Below are positions 51,273-64,000 of a stretch of DNA of 64,000 nt, in pieces. The stretch lies in NCBI RefSeq assembly GCF_051058965.1, contig NZ_CP183924.1; one strand, 5' to 3'. Each line of letters starts with the position of its first letter. Position 1 is the stretch's first letter. This DNA comes from Corallococcus exiguus. GTDB lineage: Bacteria; Myxococcota; Myxococcia; Myxococcales; Myxococcaceae. The notes beneath the pieces were generated by a model. That model saw only the letters and a list, made by a program, of their open reading frames with translations, searched no databases and was not told the origin of the DNA. The position numbers and the translations under genes were made by a program.

Positions 51273-51314
51273 CGGTGGTTGACGGACTGGGGCGGAGCGG
51301 CGGTAATCGGAAGC

Positions 51315-51413
51315 GGTAGGGCCTCCGGACCTGGTGGCCGGCCCGGTCTTCAAAACCGGTGAGGGGCTGCGAGAGCAGTCCCTGGCGAGTTCGATTCCCG
51401 TGCCCTACCGCCA
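51315..51413 (+). tRNA. selC: tRNA-Sec (selC-like; anticodon UCA)
   Basis: I folded it by hand. The acceptor stem is 8 bp (GGTAGGGC / GCCCTACC) with discriminator G and an encoded CCA at 51411-13. The D-stem is CCGG/CCGG. The anticodon stem is CCGGT/ACCGG with loop cTTCAaa (TCA at 51350-52). The variable arm is long, 8 bp (GGGGCTGC-gaga-GCAGTCCC), resembling E. coli selC. The T-loop is TTCGATT, with one A.C mismatch in the T-stem. Total length 99 nt. Confidence 0.6.
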
Positions 51414-51507
51414 TCTGCTTGCGGCCTGATGTCAGAGCCGCAGACGCGACAGGCCTTGTCTGAGGATGGACAGGTAATTGACGGCCAGCGTGTCGTAGCG
51501 GGAGCCA

Positions 51508-53790
51508 ATGGCACGCTTGTCCGTACTCCGTGCCGATGGATGCAGGTCCGTGACCGGGTACCCCGGACCGGTTATACGTCCCCCGTTCACCAGGGGAGAC
51601 ACCGTGTCCGAAGAGTTGGAGGTCGCTAGCGCATGCTGGTTGCTGTTCAAGAAGGCGCGGGAGTGGCCCTCCAAGAAGCTCTTCGCCCGCAGCTACCCCC
51701 ATTGGGCCGCCCCCGTCCTGAGCTCCCAGAAGAAGTGGCCCCACATCCATGTCAGTAGCGAGATCAGACCTGACTGGGAACTCCTCTTCATTCTTCCGGA
51801 GACGCGCACCCTCCTCGCCCCGCTCCCTGCATTCATCCGTGATGTGGCCGCCCGGGTCGTTGCGAACCCCATTTATCGCAACGATCATTCATCGCGGTTG
51901 AACCTCACGCTGAAGGACTTCGAGCGATTCTGGAGCAACGCCGATACAGCCAGGCTCGCGGCAGATCTGCTGACCAAGCTGTGGAATCCCTGGCTCGGCT
52001 GGGGAAGCTCAGATTCGGAGGGCGTCAGGTTCCATCCACACCTGGATGTACTCCGATATGAGCATGTCCAGGGGCTCGACGAGTTGCTTCAGCAAAGCCA
52101 CCTGCCGCCGAGCGGCGCCCAGAAAAAGGTCGCCGAGCCCGAAGGCACGTATCTGCAGCTCCTGCACCGGATTCACGAGCATCTCAAGCGAACTGGCACC
52201 TGGCCCGAGGCCGTTCCCTTCACGGTAGCGCACCGCGACCTTGGCTTCATCCCGGATCTCGTCGACCGGCTTGAACCCGAGTTCATCCGGAGAGCATGGA
52301 AAGGGACACGGGACGAGAAACTCAAGCTCACCTTCAAGAGCCTTGACCGGGTCACATCCGCGCACGAACGACACCTTCTCGCTCAGGCAGTCCGGGCCAT
52401 GGCCCAGATCTGGCTGGACACGGATGAGCCCGATTCCAACTTCGGCATCACCGCCGAGATGGTTGCGCATGAATCGAAGCTTTCGCAGGCAGAGGTGGGC
52501 CCCTTGTTGCGATACCTGGAGCAGGCGTTCTGGGTAACAATCGAGCCCTCGGACTGGGTGGAACAGCCCTGGAAGTTACTGGTCAATGACAAGATTGGCC
52601 TCCTGAAGAACGTGGAGATCTGGGAGGATTATCTCCGAGCCATCCAAGAGGAGGAAAAAGCTCAGCACCATGCGGTAATCAGTTCGGTTGATCTGGAACG
52701 ACTCGCCAACGTATCAGAAGGCTTTTTCGCACCAGCCCGCGAGCCGCCCGCCCTGGGTAAGAAAGGGCGCAGCCGACGCGCCAAGAAGGCAAAGCCGATA
52801 TTCATCAGCCATGCCGCGAAGGACAAGGAGCTTGTCGATGCCTTCGTGGAGCTTCTTGTGTTCGGAATGGGCGTCGACGCCGACGACATGGTCTGCAGTT
52901 CCCTGAGTCAGCAGGCTGTTCCATTGGGAAACAAGTTCAGGGATTACCTGAGAGATTCCGTCAATGGCTGCTCCCTGTTCATCTGCCTCGTCTCCAAGAA
53001 CTTCTACGCCAGCACGTTCGCTCTTTGTGAAGTCGGTGCGGCCTGGGGCGCAAATAAGATCATTGTCCCCGTGATGGTGCCTCCCCTGGGGCCAGAGGAT
53101 CTGGAAGCCGTGCTCCAAGATGGATGGCAGGCCGTCGAGCTACTGAATGGCGACCAGTTGGCACAAGTGGAAGGACTTCTCCGCAAGCACCTCGGGGGTA
53201 CTGGCGACATCGGCCGCTGGAACCACCAGCTTCGGAAGTTCCTGAAAACGGCTCGGGAAGTGGGGCAGGATGCCTCCAGAGATGCTTCAGGCCAGGACAC
53301 TCACTCACCTGAGCGCGCAGGTCATGACATACACAAGCAAGCAGGAGCGTCTTCCAGCGTCCGAAATGTCCAAGCCTCTGACCCGCCGGACTGGCAGACC
53401 TTCGTGAAGCTTGTTGGGGCGGTAAGAGCGGCCAGCGAACCGCTCTCTCCCGTGCTGCGAGCGGCAGCCTATGCGACAGGCTCTGGAATGGCGGGAGAGG
53501 TTATCGGCAGAGATTACAAAGACATCCGTGACGCTGAAGACCGCGGCATGCTCGTGTTCGACGCGAACAAGTTCTGGGCGGACGACGACAGCCGGCTCAT
53601 GCGCAGTGTTGTCGAGCCCTTCAATGCCTTGAAAGGCTTCCTCCAGCAGGCAAGCGATCGCTTCCACCTTGAGCACGAGAAACGATACGGGTTTGTCGCG
53701 GATATGCAGAAGCTGCGATTCGCGGAAGTACACATTGGGTTCAGCTGGGTCTACGGCACACCGGATCCGGACGACAACATCCCATTCTGA
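51508..53790 (+). CDS. Large (about 760 aa) hypothetical protein with a central TIR-like domain. It is the first gene of the post-tRNA island.
   Basis: A central block reads KKAKPIFISHAAKDKELVDAFVELLVFGMGVDADDMVCSS...GNKFRDYLRDSVNGCSLFICLVSKNFYASTFALCEVGAAWGANKIIVPVMV. This is the TIR_2-like pattern (FISH...D, then SKNYxxSxWC.E). I could not assign the N-terminal approximately 430 aa or the C-terminal approximately 230 aa. GC is noticeably lower than in the flanks. The start is uncertain (ATG 51508 or GTG 51604). Confidence 0.55.
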   Translation: MARLSVLRADGCRSVTGYPGPVIRPPFTRGDTVSEELEVASACWLLFKKAREWPSKKLFARSYPHWAAPVLSSQKKWPHIHVSSEIRPDWELLFILPETRTLLAPLPAFIRDVAARVVANPIYRNDHSSRLNLTLKDFERFWSNADTARLAADLLTKLWNPWLGWGSSDSEGVRFHPHLDVLRYEHVQGLDELLQQSHLPPSGAQKKVAEPEGTYLQLLHRIHEHLKRTGTWPEAVPFTVAHRDLGFIPDLVDRLEPEFIRRAWKGTRDEKLKLTFKSLDRVTSAHERHLLAQAVRAMAQIWLDTDEPDSNFGITAEMVAHESKLSQAEVGPLLRYLEQAFWVTIEPSDWVEQPWKLLVNDKIGLLKNVEIWEDYLRAIQEEEKAQHHAVISSVDLERLANVSEGFFAPAREPPALGKKGRSRRAKKAKPIFISHAAKDKELVDAFVELLVFGMGVDADDMVCSSLSQQAVPLGNKFRDYLRDSVNGCSLFICLVSKNFYASTFALCEVGAAWGANKIIVPVMVPPLGPEDLEAVLQDGWQAVELLNGDQLAQVEGLLRKHLGGTGDIGRWNHQLRKFLKTAREVGQDASRDASGQDTHSPERAGHDIHKQAGASSSVRNVQASDPPDWQTFVKLVGAVRAASEPLSPVLRAAAYATGSGMAGEVIGRDYKDIRDAEDRGMLVFDANKFWADDDSRLMRSVVEPFNALKGFLQQASDRFHLEHEKRYGFVADMQKLRFAEVHIGFSWVYGTPDPDDNIPF

Positions 53791-63890: not shown

Positions 63891-63924
63891 TTGCGGCCAT
63901 TGCGCGGACGGCGGTGAGGTCAGC

Positions 63925-63958
63925 GAAGCTACCAGCCCCGCACGGTGTCAATGAGCTC
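63925..63958. repeat. Right copy of the approximately 33-bp imperfect direct repeat (AGCTACCAGCCCCGCACGgtgTCAATgAGCT)
   Basis: It is a direct repeat of 58042-58075. Together they bracket the 3-gene module 58264-63890. Confidence 0.55.
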
Positions 63959-64000
63959 CTGGGAGTTCCATTCGACGACCTTCATTCCCCGGTGGTTGTT

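Follow-up and report, generated by a model that had tools for sequence, protein, structure and literature searches.

The 64,000-nucleotide (nt) stretch of Corallococcus exiguus DNA analysed here (RefSeq assembly GCF_051058965.1, contig NZ_CP183924.1; hereafter the window) carries, directly after its gene for selenocysteine tRNA (selC), five long open reading frames (ORFs) that we term P1 to P5 (Table 1). We consider it likely that a strain-variable defence island, acquired horizontally and built as a mosaic of independent TIR modules, starts at selC, and that the 12.6 kb seen here are its selC-proximal part. In the best reading of their domains, the modules are of known kinds overall, with two variant components, namely the sensor domain of P1 and the membrane-anchored TIR-propeller protein P3. 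A preliminary description, made from the sequence without database searches, had taken the five genes for one candidate undescribed system. A single five-gene system is rejected here in favour of a mosaic, because homologues of P1 and P5 occur alone in other genomes and because P3 has been deleted from the sister island of Corallococcus exercitus.

A TIR gene island bounded by selC

The tRNA gene that forms the left boundary of the island is genuine. ARAGORN finds a single tRNA in the window, tRNA-SeC with anticodon TCA, and Rfam model RF01852 (tRNA-Sec) matches the same segment with a score of 70.5 bits (gathering score 47). The change in composition that had been noticed immediately after it is also real. 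Specifically, the G+C content falls from 0.697 over positions 1-51300 to 0.624 over positions 51414-64000, and no 12.6-kb segment upstream lies below 0.686. Likewise, the flanking methyltransferase gene has a G+C content at third codon positions (GC3) of 0.94, compared with 0.66-0.75 for the five genes of the island.

P1 and P2 lie on the + strand and P3, P4 and P5 on the - strand, forming convergent transcription units (P1/P2 and P5/P4/P3). A TIR-family or DUF4071 domain is significant in every one of the five genes, and the TIR, STAND and DUF4071 assignments of the preliminary description were all upheld by profile searches (Pfam, PADLOC). The same TIR profiles detected zero TIR-family ORFs in 392 kb of control DNA, so the density of such genes after selC is beyond chance. 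All five of the ORFs first proposed were retained as genes, with starts corrected for P3, P5 and, probably, P1. Furthermore, the island extends past position 64000, because the window closes with 69 bases that code for the C terminus of another ThsB-type TIR. The gene to which they belong is a homologue of a 128-amino acid (aa) gene in the C. exercitus island whose product has a ThsB_TIR domain (PADLOC ThsB, E = 9.4e-9). Beyond the five TIR-type immune genes seen here, the selC island probably holds others, for eight in all.

A scan with the methyltransferase gene upstream of selC yielded 19 loci. The methyltransferase-selC junction is kept in nine Corallococcus genomes, and nucleotide homology to the eight others runs out with the final tRNA base, at 51413/51414. 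The island is thus strain-variable and its boundary lies exactly at the 3' end of selC. What follows selC differs between Corallococcus species (loci L007, L009, L010, L012, L023 and L024). One species carries two Ser/Thr kinases, another AlkZ with an ABC transporter, another glycosyl- and methyltransferases with a 597-aa eCIS_core protein, and another a 2101-aa eCIS_core/UCH protein. Two species (L012 and L023) carry a tyrosine integrase with DUF3854/DUF5906 genes at this site. The methyltransferase gene of Myxococcus, Pyxidicoccus and Archangium is not accompanied by selC. The conserved junction, the variable sequence downstream of it, the stop of homology at the tRNA end and the drop in G+C and GC3 together support a horizontally acquired island.

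The TIR island itself is shared only by one C. exercitus assembly (locus L001), at ~91% nucleotide identity. The low-G+C block of this assembly is ~13 kb long and is terminated by a MauG-type gene. Its P3 is reduced to a 168-aa remnant, an extra 136-aa ThsB gene lies between selC and P1, and three further TIR genes are present past P5 (a CAP12-type TIR, a 324-aa protein and the 128-aa ThsB). The 136-aa ThsB is the closest relative of the TIR partners found on Pseudomonadota plasmids (E = 1e-24 to 1e-28; see below). A comparison of divergence domain by domain between the C. exiguus and C. exercitus islands revealed no sensor-specific hypervariability. The selC site behaves as a hot spot, and there is gene flux within the island as well. 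In Corallococcus, where the cargo differs in every species examined, selC is a clear case of a hypervariable integration site.

The region resembles tRNA-linked islands in its boundary exactly at the tRNA 3' end, its lower G+C content, its species-variable cargo and the integrase at the same selC site in two relatives. It departs from typical examples in two respects that count against this assignment. No integrase is present among the ORFs of 51.4-64 kb or in the C. exercitus locus, and a search for attachment (att) repeats with the tRNA and its 3' flank as query returned chance matches of 13 nt or less in both the window and L001. These searches covered the window and L001; the far end of the C. 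exiguus island lies beyond the window.

Table 1. Positions of the island genes in the window and of related genes at other loci (L numbers)
Feature	Position	Strand	Remarks
tRNA-Sec (selC, anticodon TCA)	51315..51413	+	ARAGORN and Rfam RF01852; left island boundary
P1	51604..53790 (longest ORF from 51508)	+	TIR_2; PADLOC spbK; start at 51604 probable
P2	53840..57994	+	NLR-like TIR-nSTAND1-WD40 protein, 1384 aa; two beta-propeller regions
P3	58264..61707	-	1147 aa; TIR, transmembrane helix 162-180, coiled coil ~181-310, WD40-type beta-propellers (predicted)
P4	61959..62375	-	138-aa stand-alone ThsB/BcTir-type TIR; 12 bp downstream of P5
P5	62388..63752	-	ThsI/BcTpr-like effector, 454 aa; TPR-S / MAP3K_TRAF_bd
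3' end of a further ThsB-type TIR gene, running off the window	63932..64000	-	tblastn, 21/23 identical residues
C. exercitus TIR genes absent from the window view	L001:7381-9817 and L001:19630-20040		
C. exercitus 278-aa CAP12-type TIR			PADLOC PDC-S35, E = 1.2e-25
C. exercitus 324-aa TIR_2+Y4lF protein			full-length match to ThsB model, E = 5e-20
Hydrolase-TPR-S paralogue of P5 homologues	L028:937-2394, L040, L050, L051, L055, L060, L069, L083, L087		
ThsB-type TIRs starting MGGGG(G)	L031:3478-3960, L032:3048-3530, L034:3555-4028, L038:464-934, L050:12033-12500, L085:904-1404, L089:179-700		

The P4 and P5 pair

From their sequences, P4 and P5 look like a Thoeris-type sensor/effector pair, of the already described type VIII or BcTir/BcTpr kind. 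P4 matches ThsB_TIR (E = 1.8e-6) and PADLOC ThsB (E = 2.5e-6), and its sole match among solved structures (PDB) is the BcTir structure 8FZ9. When P4 and related ThsB genes are combined into a profile, the match to 8FZ9 is full-length (E = 4e-23) and stronger than that to the classical ThsB 6LHY (E = 1.9e-14). Furthermore, Glu-77 of P4, which forms part of a WE motif, is shared without exception by 12 related ThsB sequences and falls in the same alignment column as the WxxE Glu of 8FZ9 and 6LHY.

P5 begins at an ATG with a GAGGA motif ahead of it, and the second ThsB gene, which runs off the window, ends 180 bp upstream. The protein is laid out as a predicted Rossmann-like domain of glycosidase type (residues ~1-125) followed by an ASK1-type TPR region, and it matches MAP3K_TRAF_bd (formerly DUF4071; E = 6.4e-45) and TPR-S (E = 1.4e-23). 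Its N terminus also matches the 'TIR effector' model of PADLOC for cyclic oligonucleotide-based antiphage signalling systems (CBASS; E = 1.2e-8). Within this domain the sequence LCFVLMPFG and residues N79 and N81 are invariant, and E85 is kept in at least 90% of family sequences. The motif N79-A-N81-V-F-Y-E85 and residues L10/M11 line up with N80/N82/E86 and I10/M11 of BcTpr. An assignment of the N-terminal domain as a canonical TIR was rejected (hhalign against a ThsB profile gave a probability of 0.2, and Pfam was empty).

The P5 family profile matches ASK1 with E = 9e-14. The central region of ASK1/MAP3K5 (5ULM, 8QGY) is part of a eukaryotic kinase, whereas P5 is without a kinase domain and has a predicted glycosidase-type N terminus. 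The relation is one of domain ancestry and not of function, and it makes the TPR of the P5 subclade a bacterial counterpart of the ASK1 regulatory region.

Two preprints have described pairs of this kind. In B. cereus, the genes for BcTir and BcTpr form a two-gene operon that gives protection against phage, and BcTpr consists of an N-terminal MilB-like N-glycosidase (I10, M11, N80, N82, E86) followed by TPR; the N82A and E86A mutants lose both activity and defence (bioRxiv 10.1101/2023.05.26.542521). The same work lists TIR, YspA, Patatin, LSDAT and calcineurin as partners in 'Tpr-centred assemblies'. Type VIII Thoeris, as defined by Yirmiya et al. (December 2025, bioRxiv 10.64898/2025.12.03.692087), consists of ThsB and ThsI; the latter responds to canonical cyclic ADP-ribose and joins a CMP-hydrolase domain to the TPR 'predicted by Aravind and colleagues'. 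According to that preprint, some Thoeris operons contain Cap9/10/11 (QueC/TGT/OGG) and some combine SLATT-type with ThsI effectors, one effector can be accompanied by several ThsB genes, and there are islands that hold six or seven of the latter. According to both preprints, the pairing of a TIR with a glycosidase-TPR protein was predicted earlier by Burroughs and Aravind (2020). The initial suggestion that the small TIR and the DUF4071 protein form a Thoeris-like pair is supported, whereas the accompanying claims of a novel effector and of a match to no described system are not.

Homologues of P5 number more than 7,700. The best 120 of these come from Myxococcota, Acidobacteriota, Gemmatimonadota and Nitrospirota and are 59-67% identical. 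We surveyed the neighbours of P5 homologues at 78 further loci. A TIR ORF lies within 2 kb at no fewer than 10 of the 64 metagenome loci, compared with none in the 392 kb of control DNA. A recurrent neighbour is a ThsB-type TIR directly upstream, often in operons of the form TIR-TGT / OGG / QueC / ThsB / P5 homologue. Other recurrent neighbours are TIR_2 proteins, a paralogous hydrolase-TPR-S protein, and Patatin with LSDAT (SLOG). On plasmids of Pseudomonas, Klebsiella, Acinetobacter, Vibrio, Rhizobium and Agrobacterium, a small TIR stands directly beside the P5 homologue in six of seven contexts, in either order or on both sides, and four of the seven inspected contexts include a DUF4231 gene. 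These plasmid TIRs are homologous to P4 and to the ThsB genes of C. exercitus. The QueC/TGT/OGG, Patatin, LSDAT and DUF4231 partners agree with the assemblies of both preprints.

The island pair is like type VIII Thoeris and BcTir/BcTpr in that a small ThsB-type TIR adjoins an effector with TPR-S and a predicted N-terminal domain of glycosidase type, in the Asn-x-Asn-x3-Glu motif that P5 shares with BcTpr, and in the accessory partners of its relatives. P5 is also flanked by two small TIR genes, as in an Acinetobacter plasmid context. It differs in its myxobacterial host, in lying among three further large TIR proteins, and in the membership of P5 in an often solitary subclade from soil bacteria. 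The observations extend type VIII Thoeris, or TIR-TPR, systems to myxobacteria and to a strongly conserved effector subclade of more than 7,700 proteins.

Several results speak against reading P5 as the effector of such a pair. Identity between P5 and the Pseudomonadota plasmid versions is only ~28%. At least six loci of its subclade have full flanks and no TIR gene, and solitary homologues include those of Polyangiaceae and Blastocatellia. The isolated N-terminal domain has no match in Pfam, its sequence matches to Rcl/DNPH1 in PDB are not significant (E = 0.1-0.9), and fold searches with P5 are dominated by TPR matches that mask the N-terminal fold. In addition, the two preprints conflict on whether the signal is made by BcTpr (2023.05.26.542521) or by the ThsB TIR (2025.12.03.692087).

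Because its highly conserved subclade is often solitary, P5 may act alone. P5 could then be an autonomous, self-regulated glycosidase of nucleotides or NAD+ (nicotinamide adenine dinucleotide), with the small TIRs as regulators or unrelated neighbours. We regard this as rather unlikely. The BcTir/BcTpr preprint proposed such autonomy. In that work BcTpr alone depleted NAD+ and made a cyclic ADP-ribose (cADPR) isomer, while BcTir was reported inactive, and 29/78 operons were classed as 'core Tpr alone' (bioRxiv 10.1101/2023.05.26.542521). P5 is also the most conserved gene of the island (95.6%, compared with 83-90% for the others). However, neither BcTir alone nor BcTpr alone gave phage protection in the same study, and the ThsB TIRs of type VIII Thoeris made canonical cADPR only on infection, this molecule being toxic to cells with the system (bioRxiv 10.64898/2025.12.03.692087). 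The catalytic Glu is, moreover, kept in P4 and in all related ThsB genes.

Two further features of P5 relatives were observed in the survey. Directly upstream of P5 homologues at nine metagenome loci lies a paralogue of ~485 aa that joins an alpha/beta-hydrolase domain, substituted for the glycosidase-type one, to the same TPR-S. Also, the ThsB-type TIRs in QueC/TGT/OGG (Cap9/10/11-like) operons beside P5 homologues all start with MGGGG(G). P4 and the ThsB genes of C. exercitus do not have this poly-Gly N terminus, which the QueC/TGT machinery may use as a handle.

The large TIR proteins P1, P2 and P3

P1 is an SpbK-like TIR protein with an additional N-terminal domain. Its start is probably that of the NCBI model (728 aa). 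P1 matches TIR_2 (E = 2.4e-9), PADLOC spbK (E = 1.7e-28) and the SpbK structure 9PHB (E = 9e-12), with a conserved Glu in CEVG aligned to NEMG. The spbK alignment is limited to profile positions 141-306 of 308, and the protein consists in order of a ~390-aa N-terminal domain, the SpbK-like TIR and a C-terminal region of ~170 aa. P1 thus resembles SpbK, the TIR abortive-infection protein of Bacillus subtilis ICEBs1, in its TIR, its Glu and its nature as a single-gene module; a homologue 46% identical to P1 is solitary. Unlike SpbK, it is without the phage-sensing N terminus, and has in its place an unrelated winged-helix domain as well as the extra C-terminal ~170 aa.

The AlphaFold2 model of the P1 N-terminal domain (encoded by 51604-52782) shows about four tandem winged helices (pLDDT 89, pTM 0.85). 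Comparison of this model with PDB gave no neighbour at E<0.01, and the resemblance to the multi-winged-helix proteins RPC62, SelB (C terminus) and MarR is weak. The family of the domain has 45 representatives among 1.84 billion proteins, in which it is fused to TIR_2, CAP12-type TIR, PNP_UDP_1 nucleosidase, NACHT-HEAT or protein kinases; one of the kinase fusions also bears AbiJ_NTD3. On the basis of the model, this ~four-winged-helix domain is a candidate for an undescribed sensor domain. A family of this kind, fused to alternative immune effectors, is a lead not covered in the searchable literature.

The predicted architecture of P2 is already known. P2 matches TIR_2 (E = 1.7e-22), nSTAND1 (E = 9.3e-114, residues 152-548) and WD40 (E = 4.6e-43), and WD40 and beta-propeller families cover residues 719-1330. 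A P-loop, GPSGSGKSS, can be read from the translation. Kaur et al. (2021, PMC8195603) named nSTAND1 as a clade of STAND proteins that belongs to the conflict systems of multicellular prokaryotes. Like the TIR-STAND proteins of this clade, which are functionally comparable to Avs/AVAST, P2 is a single polypeptide with a TIR at its N terminus, a P-loop NTPase in the middle and a WD40 sensor at its C terminus. PADLOC 2.0 gave no Avs match for P2, returning only partial TIR or P-loop matches, and our literature search found no experimental work on the nSTAND1 TIR-STAND clade.

What sets P2 apart from its clade is an Arg at the column of the SARM1 catalytic Glu, present in both P2 and its C. exercitus orthologue in two alignments. 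Glu occupies this column in ten other TIRs and in a Caballeronia TIR-STAND homologue. The replacement weighs against an enzymatic role for this module, since a TIR with Arg in place of the canonical Glu is possibly not an NADase. Residues ~78-90 of P2 (54080-54110) read NARIRAML, and the nearest Glu lies five residues upstream of the column.

P3 has a rare architecture and is the least described part of the island. It matches TIR_2 (E = 2e-14) together with WD40 families and propellers, and its TIR aligns with SARM1, with a Glu at the position of the KEI Glu of SARM1. A single hydrophobic helix (Kyte-Doolittle peak 2.08) is followed by a stretch rich in Ala, Glu and Arg that is predicted to form a coiled coil. 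The start was placed at Met-86 of a longer GTG-initiated ORF because a 73%-identical, 1146-aa homologue (P0122, locus L099) starts there, and this leaves ~250 bp between P4 and P3. Only two full-length homologues of P3 were found. The order of TIR, hydrophobic segment and WD40 is common to homologues P0122-P0129, and a hydrophobic segment with preceding Arg/Lys follows the TIR not only in P3 but also in eight TIR-WD40 proteins that are more distant. Because the single hydrophobic segment is preceded by Arg/Lys, the TIR is predicted to be cytoplasmic and the coiled coil and propellers extracytoplasmic. A description of this TIR/transmembrane/coiled coil/propeller architecture was not found in the literature, and the combination of TIR, transmembrane helix and beta-propeller is a second lead that searchable publications do not cover.

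P3 and its few relatives might be single-pass receptors with the topology of Toll-like receptors, and the P1 N-terminal domain a new portable sensor module common to TIR, nucleosidase, kinase and NACHT effectors. To this double proposal we give a small chance. The propellers and coiled-coil stalk of P3 would detect what happens at the envelope, for instance the adsorption of a phage or an encounter with kin, prey or competitors, and the one helix would relay the signal to the cytoplasmic TIR with its catalytic Glu. This TIR would then deplete NAD+ or feed a cADPR signal to the ThsI-like P5.

Proposed action and competing readings

For the mosaic of modules that we favour, we infer the following biochemical steps and defence role. 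P4, the partly visible upstream ThsB and P5 would form a type VIII Thoeris-like module. On infection, by analogy with the Thoeris preprint, the ThsB TIRs would cleave NAD+ and make a cADPR signal that is sensed by the ASK1-like TPR of P5. As suggested by the mutagenesis of BcTpr and the conserved motif, the signal would free the MilB/CMP-hydrolase-like N-glycosidase domain of P5 (Asn79, Asn81, Glu85), which would destroy NAD+ or nucleotides so that infection is aborted. P2 may act as an NLR-like STAND ATPase whose WD40 propellers bind an invader protein and thereby trigger ATP-dependent oligomerisation of the N-terminal TIR. P1 would be a single-protein NADase of SpbK type gated by its ~four-winged-helix sensor domain, and P3 a TIR protein anchored in the membrane, its beta-propellers predicted to lie outside the cytoplasm.

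The five, or eight, TIR genes could instead constitute one integrated NAD-signalling network, in which P1-P4 signal to P5 or the P2 scaffold recruits the TIR of P1. The close packing of the genes favours this, as does the conservation of most of the set in C. exercitus (~91% nucleotide identity); in both species P1 and P2 point the same way, 49 bp apart. The Arg of P2 would suit a scaffold, and Thoeris systems with several ThsB genes as well as many-ThsB islands are known (bioRxiv 10.64898/2025.12.03.692087). Nevertheless, genes of the P5, P1 and P3 types are found without the others elsewhere, the sister island is without P3 but has an extra ThsB gene, and ~250 bp separate P3 from P4. P1/P2 and P5/P4/P3 are, moreover, convergent units, and STAND-TIR and SpbK-type proteins are described as self-contained. 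We judge a single network very unlikely.

A defence role is itself open to challenge from myxobacterial social biology, as the genes might serve to tell kin from non-kin, to bring about programmed cell death during development or to respond to prey and competitors, a role of the kind proposed for 'conflict systems of multicellular prokaryotes'. Multicellular bacteria, myxobacteria among them, show an enrichment of TIR-STAND-WD40 and nSTAND1 proteins, and the plasmid-borne nSTAND1 homologues are mostly from Streptomyces and filamentous cyanobacteria. The predicted extracytoplasmic propellers of P3 could sense external cues, and toxins of the extracellular contractile injection system (eCIS) type and kinases occupy the same selC site in other Corallococcus. 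In contrast, the closest characterised relatives (BcTir/Tpr, type VIII Thoeris and SpbK) are anti-phage, and P5/ThsB homologues are frequent on plasmids of unicellular Pseudomonadota, where they adjoin toxin-antitoxin genes. The island is also strain-variable, as is typical of defence islands. These observations make a social function quite improbable, and we retain the reading of the region as part of a defence island.

The novelty first claimed for the island is not sustained, as TIR-nSTAND1 proteins (PMC8195603) and islands with many ThsB genes (bioRxiv 10.64898/2025.12.03.692087) have already been described. Current understanding is not overturned by the region, which is of value for annotation and as a source of candidates for experiments.

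Some smaller features of the window were also recorded. A scan for promoters and terminators found sites no commoner than in shuffled sequence. A 47-nt direct repeat, 77% identical between its copies (58028-58074 and 63911-63957), flanks the P3-P4-P5 block. The copy downstream of P3 reads '*LIDFVRGW*' on the - strand, which corresponds to the last eight codons of a gene like that for the 128-aa ThsB (ELIDTVRGW*). The repeat may be the footprint of a rearrangement or an insertion. Upstream of the methyltransferase gene, a 782-aa ORF on the + strand (47810-50158) has a GC1 (first codon positions) of 0.93 and a GC3 of 0.70. Neither this ORF nor an 827-aa ORF on the - strand (47726-50209) matches Pfam, and the former is probably an antisense shadow of the latter.

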